64,000 nucleotides of DNA from Actinomycetota bacterium (GTDB lineage Bacteria; Actinomycetota; UBA4738), in assembly GCA_036847185.1 (NCBI GenBank), contig DAIUAM010000016.1, forward strand, positions 993 to 64,992, written 5' to 3'. The notes under the pieces were generated by a model. It saw only the letters and a list, made by a program, of their open reading frames with translations. It ran no database searches and had not been told where the DNA came from. How positions within the stretch are numbered: the stretch's first letter is position 1; each line of letters opens with the position of its first letter. The position numbers and the translations under genes are program-made. Shown here piece after piece: positions 16,127-64,000 of this stretch.

Positions 16127-17398
16127 TCAGTGCGTCGATGCCTCGGCCACTCCGATCCTGATGTCCGTCCCCACCGGGATCCCGAGTGAGTTCTGGACGC
16201 TGATGATGAGCTCGATCATGCGAATCTCGATGGAGTTCGAGGTGATGATCTCACGCCGTAGCCACAACGTCCCGAGCCCGACGAGCGTAACCTTCGTGTT
16301 GGGTCCCACGTCGTCCCCGATCTCCGGATGACCGTTCACGCTGAGGTTCACGAACTGGGAGCCGCCGTCACCGAACGTGAACGTCGAGCCGTCCGTGAAG
16401 CTATGCGCGTCGGCCTTGATGAGGTCGACGGTGACAGCACCATCAGCCACGTTTGCCGTTTGTACGGTCGAGGTGGTCTCTCCGCTTGCCGAAGTCGAGG
16501 TGACCGTCCCCTGCGCAGTGTCCTGGACCGTGCCCACCTTCAATGTGGGGGAAGCGTCTACCGATGCAACGGAGTTGCTCTTGATGACGCCGTTCGTCCC
16601 CTGACATCCCAGGCTGATGTAGGCGGACTTCCCGGAGATGATCGTGTGACTGACATTGGCGAAGCTGCCGTAGGCGAATCCGTCCAGGGTCCCACCCACG
16701 CTCGCCTTCAACATGCTGGTGGCGTGAGCGACGATGATCTGCGTGCCCTTGGGGACCAGGGGATTGGTCAGAGTCACGAAGACGTGGATCATGTTGACCG
16801 TCAAGGACGCCGACGACGACCTCAGGGTCGAGATCTGCTCGTTGAGCACGACGTGACCGATCCCTGGCAGATTGATCTGCGTGTTCGGTGACGGGAGGAC
16901 CGTGATCGGCACCCCGTTCACCACGAGGTTGACTAGGTTCGAGCCTGTTGCACTCACCTGGAATCCCGAAGGGTCCAGGGTGGTGGTGCTGACCGCCTTG
17001 ACCTCGTCGCCGGTGATCAGACCCATCAGCACGTTGACGCCGTGGACATCGGCCGTGGCCTGAGACGTCTGCGTCCCGCCGTCCGTGGCGGACGCCGTCG
17101 TGTTGATGAGGCCGGTCGTGACGAACGGCGGTGCGTTCACCGTGGCCACCGTGTTGGAGTTGCTCATCGGCGGTGTCAGCGTGCCGCAGCCGCCGAGGTT
17201 CACCACCGCTGACTTGCCCGCCTTCACTACGCTCCCGACGAAGGCGTAGGTCCCATAGGCGTCCGCCGTGTACTGCGTCCGACCCGATGTGGTCGTCTGG
17301 TGCAATCGAGGGAGCGCGTTCGCCCCCGTCGCCACCATGCCAACCACCGCAGCGACGAGCGGGACCACAACGGCGAGCCGAAACTGATGACGTGTCAT
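16127..17398 (-). CDS. secreted hypothetical protein with two tandem homologous ~170-aa domains
   Basis: Signal peptide (MTRHQFRLAVVVPLVAAVVGMVATGANA). Two internal repeats share ...NLGGCGT... / ...SLGCQGT... Ser/Thr-rich cores. GC content is lower than the flanks. Confidence 0.6.
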   Translation of the reverse strand: MTRHQFRLAVVVPLVAAVVGMVATGANALPRLHQTTTSGRTQYTADAYGTYAFVGSVVKAGKSAVVNLGGCGTLTPPMSNSNTVATVNAPPFVTTGLINTTASATDGGTQTSQATADVHGVNVLMGLITGDEVKAVSTTTLDPSGFQVSATGSNLVNLVVNGVPITVLPSPNTQINLPGIGHVVLNEQISTLRSSSASLTVNMIHVFVTLTNPLVPKGTQIIVAHATSMLKASVGGTLDGFAYGSFANVSHTIISGKSAYISLGCQGTNGVIKSNSVASVDASPTLKVGTVQDTAQGTVTSTSASGETTSTVQTANVADGAVTVDLIKADAHSFTDGSTFTFGDGGSQFVNLSVNGHPEIGDDVGPNTKVTLVGLGTLWLRREIITSNSIEIRMIELIISVQNSLGIPVGTDIRIGVAEASTH

Positions 17399-17588
17399 GC
17401 CCTTGCTCCTTTCCTGATCTCGGAATCCGGGCGTCCGAGGGGCGATCGATACGGGCTTACCCATCTACTGACACGCCTCCCTCCTGTGGGCTAGTCATAT
17501 ATACCTGATAGAGATTATCTAGTCAAATTAGGGGGGTTATGTACTTGACGCACGGCTGCGGAAGATGTATTCTTCATGTTGTGAACAC

Positions 17589-17774
17589 CTACTTGGACGG
17601 CTTCGGAGGCTCTACCTGCGGTTTCGGTTCTTTCCCAATCTCCCGGTCAACATGTTCGATGACCTTCTTTGGGAACAACTTGCGCATTGCCTCGTCCGTT
17701 GTCCATTCGGTCGGGTGTCGCTTCTTCCTAGGCATGGGGGCCTCCAAGTGAACGAACCGAAGCCGCTGACGCAC
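17589..17774 (-). CDS. small basic hypothetical protein inside the IS left arm (possibly MPRKKRHPTEW... from an internal start)
   Basis: 61-aa ORF in low-GC DNA just upstream of the transposase. No recognisable family. Could be non-coding IS sequence. Confidence 0.15.
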   Translation of the reverse strand: MRQRLRFVHLEAPMPRKKRHPTEWTTDEAMRKLFPKKVIEHVDREIGKEPKPQVEPPKPSK

Positions 17775-17792
17775 GTGAACGGCAAGCAGGAG

Positions 17793-18695
17793 ATGGACCT
17801 AATGAAGCTGATCGACCGCTTCGGGTCAGAGGACCGCTGCCGTGAGTACCTGATTCACCTTCGCTGGCCCGAGGGACCGGAGTGCGTAAAGTGCGGCTCC
17901 AAGTCGCTGTCGTGGATCTCCACTCGGAACCAGTTCGACTGCAACTCATGCCGCGCTCGATTCTCGGCGACGGCGGGGACCGTGTTCCACGATTCCCACC
18001 TTCCCCTCCGGAAGTGGTTCCTCGCCACCTACATGATGGTCGAGGCTAAGAAGGGCGTCAGCGCGAACCAGTTGAAGCGGACGCTCGGCACGTCGTACAA
18101 GACGGCGTGGTATCTGTGCCATCGCATCCGCTCGGCCATGATGGGCTCGAGCCCCGAGCGGCTCCAAGGGACCGTCGAGATAGATGAAACGTTCCTCGGC
18201 GGCAAGGTCAAGAGCGGGAGCAAGCCCGCCATGGAAGCCGCTCGGCGGAAGACCACCAACAAGGTCATGGTCATGGGGGCATTGGAGGAAGGTGGACAGA
18301 TTCGCCTCAAGGCAGTAGGCAAGCGAACCGTAGCCTCGACACGCTCGGTCGATGCGTTCCTTGCCGATGCCGTCGTGAACGGAGTTCGGCTCTACTCCGA
18401 CCAGTCCAGCGCCTATGCCCACCTTCCGAACCATGAGTCGGTGGATCACAGCACCGATGAATGGGTTCGGGGCGACGTGACGACGAACGGCATTGAGTCG
18501 GCGTGGTCGCTGCTCAAGCGGTCCATCGTCGGGAGCTATCACCAGCTCTCCGAGAAACACTTGAGCGCCTACCTGGACGAATTCGAGTTCCGGTTCAACA
18601 ACCGGGAGAACCCCTACCTGTTCCGAGACACTCTGCTCGCGCTCATTCATGCGGACGCTCTCCCGTATCGGGAATTGGTCGAAGCTTCACGGTGA
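17793..18695 (+). CDS. IS1595-family (ISXO2-like) transposase
   Basis: N-terminal zinc-ribbon (CVKCGS...CNSCR) and a DDE ISXO2-like domain (IDETFLGG...YSDQSSAY...TNGIESAWSLLKR). Confidence 0.85.
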   Translation: MDLMKLIDRFGSEDRCREYLIHLRWPEGPECVKCGSKSLSWISTRNQFDCNSCRARFSATAGTVFHDSHLPLRKWFLATYMMVEAKKGVSANQLKRTLGTSYKTAWYLCHRIRSAMMGSSPERLQGTVEIDETFLGGKVKSGSKPAMEAARRKTTNKVMVMGALEEGGQIRLKAVGKRTVASTRSVDAFLADAVVNGVRLYSDQSSAYAHLPNHESVDHSTDEWVRGDVTTNGIESAWSLLKRSIVGSYHQLSEKHLSAYLDEFEFRFNNRENPYLFRDTLLALIHADALPYRELVEASR

Positions 18696-20038: not shown

Positions 20039-20103
20039 CGAACGAGACGACTCGGGGCGGGTGGCCCTTCGGGCGCCTTCCCGTCTCCGCAGGTAGATAC
20101 AGG

Positions 20104-20190
20104 TGCCGGGAGGGGGAGTTGAACCCCCACGCCCTTGCGGGCGCCGGATTTTGAGTCCGGTGCGTCTGCCAGTTCCGCCATCCCGGCGAG
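20104..20190 (-). tRNA. tRNA-Leu (anticodon CAA), class II with long variable arm
   Basis: Reverse complement reads GCCGGGA...anticodon loop CTCAAAA...GGGGGTTCAACTCCCCC TCCCGGC A CC. Cloverleaf built by hand. Confidence 0.8.
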
Positions 20191-23099: not shown

Positions 23100-23594
23100 C
23101 TACAGGTAGCGGTTGTCCGGTTGGTCGCGCTCGGCCGGCTGGGGGAGACCTCGACGGACGCGTGCCTCCATCTCCTGGGCGGCCTGCTGAGCGGCCTGGA
23201 GCTGGATGGCGAGCTGGGTACCCTGGAACAGACCCTCCAGCCAGCCCAGGATCTCCGCGTGAGCCAGGGCTAGTTCCTCCAGCGTCCCGTCCTTGATGTC
23301 AGGGGTCAGCGACTTCAGCTCGTCGTAGAGCTCGGGAGGCAGCGCGTCCTCGAGCTCCCGGGAGATCTGCCCGTGCACCCGCCGGAGGTGATCGATCGCG
23401 CCGGGCTCGGGCCGGATCCGGCGAGCCTCCTCCAGCACCTCGCGGGTCACGCCAGCGTTCCGGAGCAGCTTCTGGGGGTCGACCATCCGGGCGGTGACGA
23501 GTCCGTGGCCTTCGGGCGGCTCGGCATCATCGGGCGGCCCGGCATCCTCGGGAGGTGGGGACGAAGGGTGCGGTGCGGGGGGTTCGTCGCTCAT
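23100..23594 (-). CDS. DUF2587/Bpa-like protein (bacterial proteasome activator homologue) with variant C-terminus ...NRYL
   Basis: The core region (ISRELEDALPPEL.DEL..L......LAHAEILGWLEGLFQGTQLAIQ) resembles Mycobacterium Bpa (Rv3780), recalled from memory. The C-terminus is NRYL rather than GQYL. Confidence 0.5.
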   Translation of the reverse strand: MSDEPPAPHPSSPPPEDAGPPDDAEPPEGHGLVTARMVDPQKLLRNAGVTREVLEEARRIRPEPGAIDHLRRVHGQISRELEDALPPELYDELKSLTPDIKDGTLEELALAHAEILGWLEGLFQGTQLAIQLQAAQQAAQEMEARVRRGLPQPAERDQPDNRYL

Positions 23595-24052
23595 CCGGGA
23601 GAGAGCTTACCCGGCGGTCGGAAGGAACGATCCGCGGGCGACGGAGAGGAAAAGCATGGGCGGGTCCGAGAGGCCTTTGGAGCCGCTCACGCCTTCCCCA
23701 TACGCGAGCGTTATCTACTCGGCTTCTCGGACCCGCCCAAAGGGTGGCCCCAAGCAACCCCCTACGACCGGCGGGTGAACCTGGCTTCCTGTGGCTCCGA
23801 CCGGGTCCTCGAGGCTCGCGCCCTTCCGATCCTGCCGGGTCCCCGGGAGGCCTCGGCTCTCCCTTCGGTCCCGGTGCCGCTTGGGACCGGTGCGAAAACT
23901 AGCAAGGCCACCTTCGGCTGTCAAACGGAGGAAAATAGCTGCGGCACATCAATTTTCGCGGATTCGTGCAGGTGGGGGGCGGGCTCGTGGTCGCGAAAAT
24001 CTTGCGAGAATGACAAAGAAAGTCGCGGTCGTCCGGGGGGCCCACCCGGTGT

Positions 24053-45517: not shown

Positions 45518-47146
45518 ATGAGCGCCGCCGTGGTCCAGACCCGATCGATCCTCGCGAGGCACTGGCGGGCGTTCGCCGCCCTGGTTGCGGCCACCATCGC
45601 CGGTGCCGCCTGCGCGCCGGGCGGGAGCCCGCCCAGCTTCCCGGTGGTCGCCGCCACCGGCCTTCGCGTCCAGGTCGTCGATTCGCTGTACGACGCAGGC
45701 CGCTCCCCGTCGGTCGCGTTGGACAAGAACGGCAACCCGGAGGTCGCCTACCTCCTGTACCAGCCGGTCCTGAAGAAGGGGGATCTGCCCCCGCCGATCG
45801 TGGGCGGCGCGCCGCAACCCCCGTCCGTGATGCAAGCGGCGTATTCCGGCGGGACCTGGACCCGGGTGCCCGCCAGCGGCGGCGTCTCGCTCGGGCAGTC
45901 GGAGGCCGGCAAGGCGACGGCGATCGCGAACAAGGACGGCCAGGCCATCCCGGGGGTCAACGACGCCATGACCCTGGACGCGGCCGGAAAGCACCACATC
46001 GTGTGGGCCACCCCGTCCGGGCTCTTCTACACCGACGACTCCAACGGGACCTACGGGAGCCCGACGAAGATCAGCTCCGCACAGACGTTCGGGGCGTCCA
46101 TCGCGGTGGCCCCCGACGGTACTTCGTGGATCGCCTACTACGAAGGGTCGACCGTCAAGGTGGCAAGCGGCTCGGGCAGCACGTTCACGGAAGAGCAGGT
46201 CGCCACGACCAGCGGCGCGCCGGGAGCCACCGCGGGCGTGACGGCCATCGGAGCAGGGTCGAGCGGCCCGCAGGTCGCGTACGGCGACAACGGCACGACG
46301 GTGGTTGCCTCGAAGGTCGGGAACGCCTGGACGCCGACGCCGATCACGGGACCCGGCGGCTACGGTCTGTCGATGGCCCTCGACAAGAGCGGGAATCCGA
46401 ACCTCGCTTACTACGACCAGTCCGGCAACGTCTACGAGGTCGGATTGAACGGGGGAGGCCAGACGAAGCTGGCCACCGTGGAGCCGGCGAAGGGTACGAC
46501 GGGCCCTTCGGCGGGCTGGTCGACCGGGATCGCGGTCGATGGCTCCGGGGTCGACTACGTCGCCTGGTCCGACATCGGGCGAGGACTGGTCTACGTGGCG
46601 ACGAACGGGAGCGGCTCGTTCCAGACCCACCCCGTCCAGGGGAGCTTCGGCGGCCTCAACCCCTCGATCGCGGTCTCGGCCGACGCGCAGCACCTGGCGG
46701 TGGCGTGGTACGACGGGCCGGACGGCGACCTCGACATCGCGACGCCGCCGGCCGGCAGCCTCGCCCTGGCCTTCTCGCCCGCCCCCGTGGTCCTGCCGTC
46801 GGCGGGCCCGACCGCCCCACAGTGCTCGCCCGGCAGCTCGACCGACCTCTCCATCGCCGCCCCGGTCGGCGCCGCCGCCAAGGGATTCGACACGACCTGC
46901 CTCGCGGTCGCGGCCGGGAAGACGTTCACGGTGACCTTCGCGAACGACGACACCGGCGTGCCGCACGACTGGGCGCTCTTCGCGAACTCCGCCGCCACGA
47001 GCCCGATCGGCGGGGCCACCAGCCCGACCCCGGTCAGTCCGGGCAGCTCGCAGAAATACTCGCTGACGGCCCTGAAGGCAGGCACGTACTTCTACCACTG
47101 CGACTTCCACCAGACCACGATGACCGGCACGCTCGTCGTGAAGTAA
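45518..47146 (+). CDS. lipoprotein with 7-bladed-propeller-like domain and C-terminal type-1-copper cupredoxin domain
   Basis: Lipobox-like IAGAAC. Seven ~40-aa repeats ([DG].G.P.[VL]A[YW]...G..Y). C-terminal GVPHDW...YFYHCDFHQTTMTG carries H, C, H, M type 1 Cu ligands. Starts 1 nt after the uvrA stop. Confidence 0.7.
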   Translation: MSAAVVQTRSILARHWRAFAALVAATIAGAACAPGGSPPSFPVVAATGLRVQVVDSLYDAGRSPSVALDKNGNPEVAYLLYQPVLKKGDLPPPIVGGAPQPPSVMQAAYSGGTWTRVPASGGVSLGQSEAGKATAIANKDGQAIPGVNDAMTLDAAGKHHIVWATPSGLFYTDDSNGTYGSPTKISSAQTFGASIAVAPDGTSWIAYYEGSTVKVASGSGSTFTEEQVATTSGAPGATAGVTAIGAGSSGPQVAYGDNGTTVVASKVGNAWTPTPITGPGGYGLSMALDKSGNPNLAYYDQSGNVYEVGLNGGGQTKLATVEPAKGTTGPSAGWSTGIAVDGSGVDYVAWSDIGRGLVYVATNGSGSFQTHPVQGSFGGLNPSIAVSADAQHLAVAWYDGPDGDLDIATPPAGSLALAFSPAPVVLPSAGPTAPQCSPGSSTDLSIAAPVGAAAKGFDTTCLAVAAGKTFTVTFANDDTGVPHDWALFANSAATSPIGGATSPTPVSPGSSQKYSLTALKAGTYFYHCDFHQTTMTGTLVVK

Positions 47147-47164
47147 CCGGCTCGCGGGCCGCTC

Positions 47165-47641
47165 CTACCCTCGCGTCCCTACCGGATTCCGCCCCGGCCC
47201 GGCCGGGCCGGCAAGCTGCGTGAGGTCCCGCCCCGAGACGAGCGCCTCCGCAACGGTCGCCGTGTCCAACGACGACCGAAGGGCCTGGGCCGCCTCGAAC
47301 CAGGCCGGATGCACCGGGCACGGATCGTCGGGACGGCAGGTGGTGCCGCGCAGGGTGCATCGCTGGGGGAGAAGGGCCCCCTCAGAGGCTTCCACGACCT
47401 CGAGCAAGGTGATCTCCGACGGTGGGCGGGCCAGGCGGTATCCCCCCTCCCGCCCCGCTCGCGCTTCGACCAGGCCGGCTCGAACCGTGTCCCCGAGGAC
47501 CTGTGGCGTGTAGCTCACGGGGATGGACATCGAGCCCGAGATCTCCCGGATCTTGCGGTACGAACCGTCCCCCCAGGCCTCCCCCAGGTAGAGGATCGCC
47601 CGCACCGCGTAGTCCGCACGTCTCGAAAGTTGCAGGTCCAT
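47165..47641 (-). CDS. Rrf2-family transcriptional regulator (NsrR/IscR-like, Cys-x6-Cys-x5-Cys-x2-His cluster ligands)
   Basis: N-terminal wHTH (LSRRADYAVRAILYL). CTLRGTTCRPDDPCPVH cluster-binding motif. Divergent from nirK. Confidence 0.8.
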   Translation of the reverse strand: MDLQLSRRADYAVRAILYLGEAWGDGSYRKIREISGSMSIPVSYTPQVLGDTVRAGLVEARAGREGGYRLARPPSEITLLEVVEASEGALLPQRCTLRGTTCRPDDPCPVHPAWFEAAQALRSSLDTATVAEALVSGRDLTQLAGPAGPGRNPVGTRG

Positions 47642-47677
47642 CGGCCCGATCATACCCCTCGTTCAGTCTCTAGCCTA

Positions 47678-47700
47678 ACGTGTAGGAGTAAGCTACACGT
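47678..47700. promoter_or_regulatory. perfect inverted repeat ACGTGTAG-N7-CTACACGT in the rrf2/nirK divergent intergenic region (candidate Rrf2 operator)
   Basis: Read directly from the sequence. ~40 bp upstream of both the nirK ATG (47741) and the rrf2 start (47641). Confidence 0.5.
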
Positions 47701-47740
47701 GTTGGAGTCGAGGAGCACGCGGTCGGAAAGAGAGGTCCGG

Positions 47741-49222
47741 ATGGATGCGAACAGGAGCGAACGAGGCAACGCTGGGATCGCGGTCCTTGTGGTGCTGTCC
47801 CTGACGGCCCTGGGGGTCGGGACGGCCGGCGTGGTCCGCGGCGGGGCGCGGTCCTCGCGAGCGGTCCAGGCTGCTTCCGTGCCCTACCTGATGGCGGGGA
47901 GCGGCACCGGCCACGTGGTGAGCGTCGACCTGACGGCGAACGACACGACCATCCAGGAGATCGCTCCCGGCGTGAAGTTCAACGCCTGGACCTTCAACGG
48001 CACCGCACCGGGTCCCGTGATCCGCGTCCAGCAGGGCGACACCGTGCAGTTCACCCTCCACAACGCGTCGAAGAACATGTCCCATTCGATCGACTTCCAC
48101 GCCGCGCAGACGCCGTGGGACGTGAACTATCAGGCGGTGGCGCCTGGCAAGGTCTTCACCTTCAGTTGGGTGGCTCGGTTCCCGGGCGTGTTCATGTACC
48201 ACTGCGGGACCCCGCCGGTCATCCAGCACATCTCGAACGGGATGTACGGCGCGATCGTCGTCGAGCCCGCCCACACGCTCGCCCCGGCCCGCGAATACGT
48301 CTTGGTGCAGAGCGAGTTCTACCCTTCGGCCCAGCCGACGGGCGGCGTTTACTACGGCGACTACAACGCGATGCTGGCCAACCAGCCCCAGTACATCGTG
48401 TTCAACGGAGAGGCCAACCAGTTCAAGGACCACCCCTTGGTCGCCAGGCCGGGGGAGCTGATCCGGCTCTGGGTGGTGGACGCCGGCCCCAGCCACTGGT
48501 CGGCCTTCCACGTGATCGGCGCGCTGTTCGACAGCGCGTACGCGAGCGGGAACCCGGCGAACGCCGTGCACGGCGTGCAGACCGTAACCATCGCTCCCGG
48601 TGACGGGTGGATGATGGAGCTCCGGATCCCCGACGCCGGGCTGTATCCGTTCGTCACGCACTCCTTCGCCGATGCGGGGAGGGGGGCGCTGGGGATCATC
48701 AAGGTGGACCCGAAGGCGCCTGCGGCTCCGAAGTCGTACCCGACGATGGGCGACCCGATGACGGCCGGGGTGACGGCTGATACCGCGACCGGGACCACCG
48801 GCCCGAGCACCGGCGGCACCGGGATGGCCGGTATGCCCATGCCTTCGCCGGCGGCCGGCGGGACGTCTTCGCCTCCCGGTGCGGCCTCGTGCATGCCGAT
48901 GGGAACGAAGCTCGAGATCACCGCACCGGCCGGGGCGAGCACGTCGGGGTTCGACAAGACGTGCCTGGCCGCCCCCGCCGGGTTGACGTTCACCGTGACC
49001 TTCAAGAACCTGGACACGGGCATCCCGCACAACTTCGCGATCTACTCGGACTCGAACGCCACCACGTGGCTGGGCGGGGCGGAGAGCGCGGCGAAGATCG
49101 TGATGGGACCGGGGAGCGTCACCTACACGATCAAAGGGCTGCCTGCCGGCCAGTACTTCTTCCGGTGCGACATCCACCCCCAGACCATGAAGGGCGTGTT
49201 CATAGTCGCGGGCGGCCACTGA
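47741..49222 (+). CDS. nirK: copper-containing nitrite reductase (NirK) with Met-rich linker and extra C-terminal cupredoxin domain
   Basis: Signal/TM N-terminus. HNASKNMSHSIDFHAA (T1/T2 Cu His). MYHCGTPPVIQHISNGMYG (His-Cys...His...Met spacing identical to NirK). A MxxM-rich linker follows, then a second cupredoxin (GIPHNF...YFFRCDIHPQTMKG). Good SD (AAGAGAGG). Confidence 0.85.
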   Translation: MDANRSERGNAGIAVLVVLSLTALGVGTAGVVRGGARSSRAVQAASVPYLMAGSGTGHVVSVDLTANDTTIQEIAPGVKFNAWTFNGTAPGPVIRVQQGDTVQFTLHNASKNMSHSIDFHAAQTPWDVNYQAVAPGKVFTFSWVARFPGVFMYHCGTPPVIQHISNGMYGAIVVEPAHTLAPAREYVLVQSEFYPSAQPTGGVYYGDYNAMLANQPQYIVFNGEANQFKDHPLVARPGELIRLWVVDAGPSHWSAFHVIGALFDSAYASGNPANAVHGVQTVTIAPGDGWMMELRIPDAGLYPFVTHSFADAGRGALGIIKVDPKAPAAPKSYPTMGDPMTAGVTADTATGTTGPSTGGTGMAGMPMPSPAAGGTSSPPGAASCMPMGTKLEITAPAGASTSGFDKTCLAAPAGLTFTVTFKNLDTGIPHNFAIYSDSNATTWLGGAESAAKIVMGPGSVTYTIKGLPAGQYFFRCDIHPQTMKGVFIVAGGH

Positions 49223-63213: not shown

Positions 63214-63300
63214 GTCGGAGTGGCGGAACTAGGTAGACGCGCTAGGTTGAGGGCCTAGTGGGCTTCATCGCCCGTGGGGGTTCAAATCCCCCCTCCGACA
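63214..63300 (+). tRNA. tRNA-Leu (anticodon GAG), class II
   Basis: GTCGGAG acceptor. D-stem GCG/CGC. Anticodon loop TTGAGGG. Long variable arm. T-arm GGGGGTTCAAATCCCCC. CTCCGAC-A-CC. Confidence 0.8.
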
Positions 63301-63387
63301 CCGCCTCTGAGCAGCGGAAACGCGAAGGGCCCGGAACGGTCCGCCACCGTCCGGGCCTTCGTCATTCCCCCAGGATTCCCCCGTGCG

Positions 63388-64000
63388 CTACTCGGCGGCT
63401 CCTTCGAACAGCGCGCCCAACCGCTCAGCCGCCTCGGCCGCGACCTCGTCACCGTCGTGCAGGTAGATGTCCGCCGTGGTGGCGATGGTGGCGTGCCCGA
63501 GCTGGCGGCTCACAACGTCCAGCCGCGTCCCCGATCGGAGCGAAAGCTCGGCGTAGGTGTGCCGGGCTCCGTGCAGCCCTATCGGCCTGACTTCGGCCTT
63601 CGCAACCAGCCGCTTCCAACGCGCCAGCAGGGTGTCCGGGTGGACGACCGCCCCGTCCGGCTCGGTGACCATCCACGGTGCATCGAGTCCCAATCCGCCA
63701 CTCGTCTTCCACGCCGGCCCGAAGGCCAGCCGTTCGGTGGACTGGCGAGCCTTCCACGCTCCGAGCGCTGCGGCTGTCGCTGCATCGAACCGGACCCGGC
63801 GCGTCCGGCGGGACTTCGTGGTGCCTCGCACGTACAGCCGCGGTGTCCGGCTGACTGGACGAGGGCGGACGAGGACCTGGCGAGCCACGGTGATGGCCGC
63901 GCCGTCGAGGTCGGTCCACCGCATCCCTAACAGCTCGCCTCGGCGTACTCCGGTCGCTAGCGCCAGTCGCCACACACCCGCCAGCCGGTCCTCGGCCGCG
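63388..64000 (-). CDS. tyrosine recombinase/integrase, C-terminal catalytic domain (gene continues beyond window end)
   Basis: Box I (TGVRRGELLGMRWTDL), HGARHTYAEL, and LGHATIATTADIYLH containing the catalytic Tyr. Stop lies 88 bp from the tRNA-Leu(GAG) 3' end. Confidence 0.8.
   Translation of the reverse strand, partial: AAEDRLAGVWRLALATGVRRGELLGMRWTDLDGAAITVARQVLVRPRPVSRTPRLYVRGTTKSRRTRRVRFDAATAAALGAWKARQSTERLAFGPAWKTSGGLGLDAPWMVTEPDGAVVHPDTLLARWKRLVAKAEVRPIGLHGARHTYAELSLRSGTRLDVVSRQLGHATIATTADIYLHDGDEVAAEAAERLGALFEGAAE

Follow-up and report, generated by a model that had tools for sequence, protein, structure and literature searches.

A Bpa/PafE-family protein ending in NRYL, and a conserved structured RNA upstream of its gene, in an uncultured lineage of Actinomycetota

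The minus strand of the window, the whole 64,000-nucleotide stretch of DNA that was analysed, carries a gene for a 164-aa protein whose C-terminus, ...AERDQPDNRYL, is followed directly by a TAG stop codon. A preliminary description of this DNA had taken the protein for a homologue of the bacterial proteasome activator Bpa (PafE), and had pointed to its NRYL ending, in place of GQYL, as a possible divergent docking motif or the sign of a paralogue with altered or absent proteasome gating. The gene, here called bpa, and the features of its product are the following.

23100..23594, minus strand: bpa/pafE coding sequence, 164 aa, ATG start, TAG stop at 23100-23102 (ORF listing, Pfam, PDB)
23486 versus 23594, minus strand: competing bpa starts (gene callers; cluster members P0122, P0123 and P0001)
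23604..23609, minus strand: candidate -10 element TAAGCT within GGGTAAGCT, 9 nt before the ATG (proposed from cross-species conservation)
23514..23594, minus strand: N-terminal acidic, Pro-rich region, residues 1-27, pLDDT 63-66, without secondary structure and unalignable between homologues
23154..23513, minus strand: helical core, residues 28-147 (AlphaFold2, Foldseek, invariant columns)
23118..23153, minus strand: flexible C-terminal linker, residues 148-159, RGLPQPAERDQP, pLDDT 61-65
23103..23117, minus strand: putative docking tail D160-N-R-Y-L164 (clade conservation; contact roles taken from M. tuberculosis structures)

GC content by codon position in bpa is 0.82/0.46/0.84, the pattern of a true high-GC gene, and an identical protein is encoded in the NCBI metagenome-assembled genomes (MAGs) GCA_002403965.1 and GCA_002413305.1 and in two ENA assemblies. 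Start calls differ among near-identical strains: besides the 164-aa form, gene callers give one of 128 aa, which begins at Met37 and is the annotation on a JGI permafrost contig of 181 kb, and longer ones of 178/184 aa. The start codons of orthologues align with the 164-aa start, the next residues being commonly Ser/Thr/Ala-Asp/Glu, and a -10-like sequence, GGGTA(A/G)NNT, is conserved 9-10 nt 5' of the start codon at orthologous loci. We favour the 164-aa start because both its position and the -10-like motif, GGGTAAGCT in the window, are conserved across species. As this motif looks like the -10 element of actinobacteria, preceded by a G, and stands at a fixed distance from the start, it suggests that bpa has its own promoter and that its leader would be very short or absent, giving a near-leaderless transcript. 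A generic promoter and terminator scan returned no element near bpa.

The preliminary description had proposed an HMM search against DUF2587 as a check on the homology. The protein matches this family, now Pfam BPA (PF10759), over residues 34-156 with E=7.2e-21 and 74.9 bits, well above the gathering cutoff of 29.5; no NCBIfam model matches the 164-aa protein. Among PDB sequences searched with phmmer, only M. tuberculosis Bpa chains match (E ~1e-16), with the GWLEGLF(H/Q)GxQ block aligned, and this GWLEGLFxGxQ motif of the core is invariant across the family. An AlphaFold2 model built with 37 homologues has a mean pLDDT of 83.5 (83-94 in the core, with low-confidence termini) and places the core helices at residues 28-36, 40-59, 64-84, 87-96 and 105-147. 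Foldseek returned eight significant matches in the PDB, all of them M. tuberculosis Bpa, the next match having E ~1. Compared with these chains, the model has a target-normalised TM score of 0.77-0.83, an rmsd of 2.0-2.6 Å and an identity of 37-41%, and its predicted fold is the four-helix-bundle protomer of the Bpa crystal structures. Taking profile, PDB sequences and predicted structure together, we regard membership of the Bpa/PafE family, as first proposed, as established.

The core strings quoted in the preliminary description, ISRELEDALPPEL and ILGWLEGLFQGTQLAIQ, are found in the translated ORF, and residues 1-30, MSDEPPAPHPSSPPPEDAGPPDDAEPPEGH, are indeed rich in Pro and acidic residues. 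The N-terminal region (residues 1-27) is variable and probably disordered, and the M. tuberculosis Bpa crystal structures that align with the window protein start near M. tuberculosis residue 36, past the equivalent region. At the other end of the core, the linker opens with a conserved R-x-(G)-L-P, aligned to M. tuberculosis QGALPP, after which length and sequence vary among homologues, the part following LP being ~5 residues shorter than in M. tuberculosis. This variable, low-pLDDT linker ends in Tyr163-Leu164-stop.

When one genome per GTDB species was scanned, 25 loci were obtained, the best of them 73% identical over the matched region, all from uncultured 'Actinomycetota/Actinobacteria bacterium' MAGs of soil, desert, permafrost and groundwater. 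In most of these the gene order is coaE-rpsA-polA on one strand and zip-4HBT thioesterase-bpa on the other, with a convergent glnQ-type amino-acid ABC operon next after bpa, and distant orthologues keep parts of the neighbourhood (polA and/or the thioesterase, together with ABC genes). We conclude from this conserved synteny that the window bpa is a vertically inherited orthologue and not an extra paralogue; a second, canonical GQYL copy was seen in none of the sequences searched. In one MAG, SMAG_U2720 (DASWCX01), two contigs (loci L016 and L032) each have one Bpa-like match, one cut by the contig end and the other a frame without a YL ending. Strain heterogeneity or a broken assembly may explain this pair, as may an additional or degraded copy of the gene.

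Several other regions of the window were also annotated. The genes uvrC, rapZ and gap lie at ~49.3-53 kb (L007 13802-17845), where rapZ is followed by gap-pgk-tpi, with no yvcK/cuvA or whiA between, and tpi by an archaeal-type cofactor-independent phosphoglycerate mutase (PF01676 + PF10143). Cultured Actinomycetes have a uvrC-rapZ-yvcK-whiA arrangement, and the different organisation in the window may point to a lineage other than the classical Actinomycetes. The interval between uvrA and uvrC (45518-49222 on the plus strand, 47165-47653 on the minus strand) encodes a 542-aa cupredoxin-domain protein, an Rrf2-family regulator and a multicopper oxidase. Between liv-type ABC/DAO genes and tRNA-Leu(caa) (20102-20187), an IS1595-family transposase gene (Zn_ribbon_IS1595 + DDE_Tnp_IS1595, ~17748-18695, plus strand) adjoins a 445-aa ORF without a Pfam match (16127-17464, minus strand). 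At the right window end a tRNA-Leu(gag) gene (63214-63302, plus strand) is followed by a tyrosine-recombinase (phage integrase) gene (63388-64000, minus strand), beyond which lie HTH genes and a DnaB/AAA_25 helicase-like gene (L035 13723-19008); the integrase region is probably an integrated element at tRNA-Leu(gag).

Upstream of bpa, the 458-bp gap between the thioesterase stop codon (24053) and the bpa ATG contains a non-coding element on the bpa strand which is better conserved than the flanking proteins. Its features are listed below.

23650-23924, minus strand: structured RNA with its promoter, RNA of ~240 nt predicted to run from ~23891 to ~23650, with a terminator-like 3' helix
23924-23919 and 23901-23896, minus strand: putative sigma-A-type promoter, TTGACA and TAGTTT separated by 17 nt (conservation)
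23888-23876 with 23758-23746, minus strand: helix A, long-range, 13 bp
23737-23721 with 23675-23659, minus strand: helix B, 14-17 bp
23710-23702 with 23692-23684, minus strand: helix C, invariant apical hairpin with loop AUGGGGAAG, then a U-rich stretch

Nearly all of 106 non-redundant copies of the RNA have a TTGAC[ATC] sequence ahead of the first conserved motif, at a distance of 35-37 nt and most often 36, and a 31-nt core of the RNA is identical or one base off in 20 of the 25 MAG loci, where the proteins are only ~60-70% identical. The proposed pairing was assessed in an alignment of 95 sequences, in which 98.6% of cells are paired, against 26-46% with slid partners. Compensatory double changes occur in 11 pairs (224 cells), whereas sliding the partners leaves them in 2-6 pairs (8-33 cells). 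The covariation score of the proposed pairing is 0.232, that of the controls does not exceed 0.057, and the observed values are reached in 0 of 500 shuffles. Two pairings were inspected manually, namely the invariant helix C and helix B as found at the related locus L010; in both, the wobbles read as G.U on the bpa strand and would be A.C mismatches on the opposite one. The RNA had no match in Rfam 15, either at the gathering score or at E<=10, and its core strings matched nothing in the searchable literature or in the Ms1 supplement; its genomic context, too, is unlike that of Ms1.

An exact-pattern scan of JGI metagenomes found the RNA on at least 120 contigs, in a single copy on each contig listed. 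Where the flanks of these listed contigs suffice, the order is polA / [zip, thioesterase] / RNA / convergent ABC operon, and bpa lies downstream of the RNA in only 21 of the 101 listed loci that have room for it. At the other RNA loci among the matches listed, the end of the ABC gene is found there, or in some a small cupredoxin-like ORF. Given how few of the listed loci have bpa downstream, we rejected the RNA as a bpa leader or riboswitch and regard it as an sRNA gene in its own right. This gene belongs to a broad group of uncultured Actinomycetota and is unclassified, widespread in soil metagenomes and probably highly expressed. As a separate observation, the position held by bpa in the window is occupied in related lineages by a small cupredoxin-like ORF.

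We then turn to the C-terminal tail of the protein. The preliminary description was right that it reads NRYL instead of GQYL and that Tyr-Leu is kept, whereas its suggestion of a special divergent motif is not supported, since xRYL is found in 116 of the 120 nearest homologues (58-96% identity). These comprise SRYL (83), GRYL (18), NRYL (10), TRYL (2), ARYL (2) and RRYL (1); YL ends 119 of the 120, the sole other ending looking truncated, and GQYL ends none. An alignment of 37 sequences shows no change at Y163 or L164 and at least 90% conservation of R162 and D160; the preceding 12-20 residues vary in both length and sequence. By this comparison of sequences, NRYL is a minor variant of a clade consensus P-D-S-R-Y-L. 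Across 23 orthologous loci, Tyr is encoded by TAC (18) or TAT (5), Leu by CTG (10), CTC (12) or TTG (1), Arg(-3) by CGC, CGG, CGT or CGA and Asp(-5) by GAC or GAT, and the residues are fixed. Such synonymous variation with fixed amino acids shows purifying selection on the protein sequence of the tail. This selection, together with the single syntenic orthologue in related MAGs, also speaks against the earlier suggestion of a paralogue with altered or absent gating.

In order to place the tail within the whole family, a profile search was run over 1.84 billion representatives at 50% identity, which gave 649 proteins at E<=1e-3, 233 of them at E<=1e-10. Helical-repeat proteins can yield false positives for Bpa profiles: P0203, a protein of 3,120 aa with 12 Bpa-profile matches at E=1e-15, is a HEAT-repeat protein and was rejected as a Bpa. 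Of the best 150 of the 649, Y[LIM] ends 128, and GQYL no more than 36; most of those without Y[LIM] look truncated. Position -3 of the 121 Y[LIM]-ended representatives of 120-300 aa is occupied by Q (37), G (17), T (11), S (10) or A (10), and more rarely by M (7), R (6), P (6), N (6), H (5) or L (4); position -4 is Gly in 87 of the 121 (72%). On these counts the family signature is x-x-Y-L, usually G-x-Y-L, and N-R replaces G-Q at the two least constrained positions. The window protein lacks the complete GQYL, which is the commonest of many family endings and, at 36 of 128 Y[LIM]-ended representatives, is by the same counts no true family-defining feature. Since xRYL is the norm of the clade and falls within the variation of the family, NRYL is ordinary and no mark of a divergent paralogue.

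The same drift is seen within the polA-linked neighbourhood itself, where orthologues end in SQYL (L021 and L023), GPAEYL (L024) and GGTEYL (L028); a further homologue ends in DPGYL (L031), on a contig whose flanks have no synteny match. With Gln or Glu at this place in orthologues, position -3 drifts, even to an acidic residue, and Tyr-Leu is unchanged. To our knowledge, an acidic residue at -3 is undescribed for any proteasome activator tail. The emphasis on 'GQYL' reflects the cultured Actinomycetes behind the literature: Delley et al. found the whole motif conserved in an alignment of 16 cultured actinobacterial species (PMC4254994). Because only the Tyr-Leu end, mostly with Gly at -4, is conserved family-wide, GQYL is unsuitable as a family filter, and motif searches for proteasome interactors that filter on GQYL or on a strict HbYX would overlook the majority of its members.

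By analogy with M. tuberculosis Bpa, we think it probable (about 0.8) that the window gene encodes the ordinary Bpa/PafE of its lineage, an ATP-independent ring that would dock on the 20S proteasome. Four-helix-bundle protomers would assemble into a ring, whose flexible C-terminal tails would enter the pockets between 20S alpha-subunits. There the penultimate Tyr163 would contact Arg26/Glu119 (M. tuberculosis PrcA numbering) and the carboxylate of the terminal Leu164 would form a salt bridge with the conserved Lys52. The gate would then open, allowing ATP- and Pup-independent breakdown of disordered substrates. In M. tuberculosis, Tyr173 contacts PrcA Arg26 and the Leu174 carboxylate contacts Lys52, both PrcA residues being essential for activation (10.1101/249060). 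Gly(-4) of M. tuberculosis Bpa makes main-chain hydrogen bonds to Asp144/Ser146 of the neighbouring subunit, and no Gln side chain figures among the contacts described in the available portion of that source (PMC9599533); the Gln of GQYL is inessential for function according to a review citing Jastrab 2015 (PMC12288473). Since the reported contacts involve no more than the Tyr, the carboxylate of the Leu and the backbone at -4, and since the Gln is dispensable, ordinary function is the most likely reading. The window protein, as far as its sequence and model can tell, keeps everything shown to matter, namely the fold, the flexible R-x-G-L-P linker, the Tyr and the terminal Leu.

One feature left unexplained by the M. 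tuberculosis model concerns the substrates of the ring. The HspR-contact residues of M. tuberculosis Bpa, H131/F138/R145 (PMC11953334), correspond to Q124/Q131/A138 in the window protein, at positions which vary family-wide (the H131 column has Q in 55 and H in 52). As these contacts are replaced, substrate preferences may differ from those of M. tuberculosis Bpa.

As regards the proteasome itself, tblastn with M. tuberculosis PrcA, PrcB, Mpa and Pup queries found none of them in the window or in 153 related loci; the PrcA and Bpa queries were 100% identical to PDB chains, and the PrcB, Mpa and Pup queries were approximate sequences. No 20S, Pup or ARC genes are annotated within ~10 kb beyond each window end. 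This local absence of prcAB/pup/arc is expected and uninformative, because in known genomes bpa is unlinked to, and far from, the Pup-proteasome locus (PMC4254994). The case for a 20S partner is an indirect one, and what argues for it most is the selection on the terminal Tyr-Leu.

Three other explanations of the locus were weighed. The first concerns the ORF itself, as spurious long ORFs are common in high-GC DNA and 27 ORFs of 50 aa or longer lie in, or reach into, the 3 kb surrounding bpa. That bpa is a chance ORF or an annotation artefact has nevertheless next to no probability, and is excluded by the Pfam match (E=7e-21), the PDB matches, 538 homologues at E<=1e-3, coding-type GC3 and conserved synteny. 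It is also conceivable, and we consider very unlikely, that the protein forms a Bpa-like ring which acts independently of the proteasome, for example as a holdase, having lost gating or never had it, possibly in a genome without 20S. Such a ring would fit the lack of detected proteasome genes in the window, its flanks and the 153 related loci, ring-lining residues that differ from those of M. tuberculosis, and a tail that departs from GQYL. Without a docking partner, however, it is hard to see why over 100 homologues should retain, through purifying selection, an invariant C-terminal Tyr-Leu on a linker that is itself variable and disordered; moreover, bpa is present as one copy at a conserved syntenic position in related MAGs, with no GQYL copy seen, and in cultured actinobacteria it is found only where prcAB occurs (PMC4254994).

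A proposal closer to the ordinary reading, which we also hold to be unlikely, is that D-x-R-Y-L is a docking code co-evolved with the 20S alpha-ring pocket of the clade, so that the protein would still be an activator with altered docking specificity, Arg(-3) for example pairing with an acidic pocket residue. Affinity, or the competition between Bpa and the ARC ATPase for the pockets, would be changed as a consequence. Arg(-3), in 116 of 120 homologues, and Asp(-5) are conserved in the clade through several different codons, and the acidic residues Glu119 and Asp144 line the M. tuberculosis pocket (PMC9599533). As position -3 is free to vary family-wide, the constraint on Arg(-3) is specific to the clade. 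Against this, the polA-linked orthologues with Gln or Glu at -3 (SQYL, AEYL, TEYL) argue against a strict charge requirement, to which can be added the PGYL homologue of unconfirmed context and the dispensability of the Gln in M. tuberculosis (PMC12288473). If such a code were real, affinity would be tuned, or pockets partitioned between Bpa and the ARC ATPase, and bacterial activators would bear lineage-specific tail-pocket specificity instead of one universal GQYL key. We retain the reading of an ordinary Bpa/PafE, in which Arg(-3) and Asp(-5), conserved in the clade, probably do something that the M. tuberculosis model leaves unexplained.

The finding itself is modest and extends Bpa to an uncultured clade; the upstream RNA is the more interesting by-product.

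The closest known system is Bpa/PafE of M. tuberculosis (Rv3780; PDB 5LFJ, 5LFP, 5IET, 6BGL, 8RGX), with which the window protein shares PF10759, the predicted four-helix-bundle core, GWLEGLFxGxQ, a disordered N-terminus, the R-x-G-(A)LP start of the linker and the terminal Tyr-Leu. The two differ in that they are 37-41% identical, that the tail is PDNRYL in the window and GTGQYL in M. tuberculosis, that the window linker is ~5 residues shorter and that the HspR-contact residues H131/F138/R145 are replaced by Q/Q/A. The window gene moreover lies in a different, polA/zip/thioesterase/amino-acid ABC neighbourhood, in an uncultured lineage.

The HbYX activators, which include archaeal PAN, eukaryotic Rpt2/3/5, Blm10/PA200 and the actinobacterial Mpa/ARC with GQYL, dock through a C-terminal tail, as the window protein would, and share with it a penultimate Tyr and a terminal carboxylate left free to bind the conserved Lys of the alpha-subunit, whereas the window protein has no AAA+ ATPase domain and no sequence homology to them. 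Its tail has Tyr at -2 and a free carboxylate, and Arg162 in place of the hydrophobic residue at -3; it falls outside the strict HbYX definition because this Arg is neither hydrophobic nor Gln, and the HbYX search that uncovered Bpa had expressly left out tails with Arg at -3 (PMC4254994). With the 11S activators PA26/PA28 (REG) the analogy is one of function only, these being ATP-independent helical-bundle rings that insert their C-termini into alpha-ring pockets. They are non-homologous and rely on an activation loop instead of a penultimate Tyr, and their rings are heptameric, whereas those of M. tuberculosis Bpa are dodecameric.
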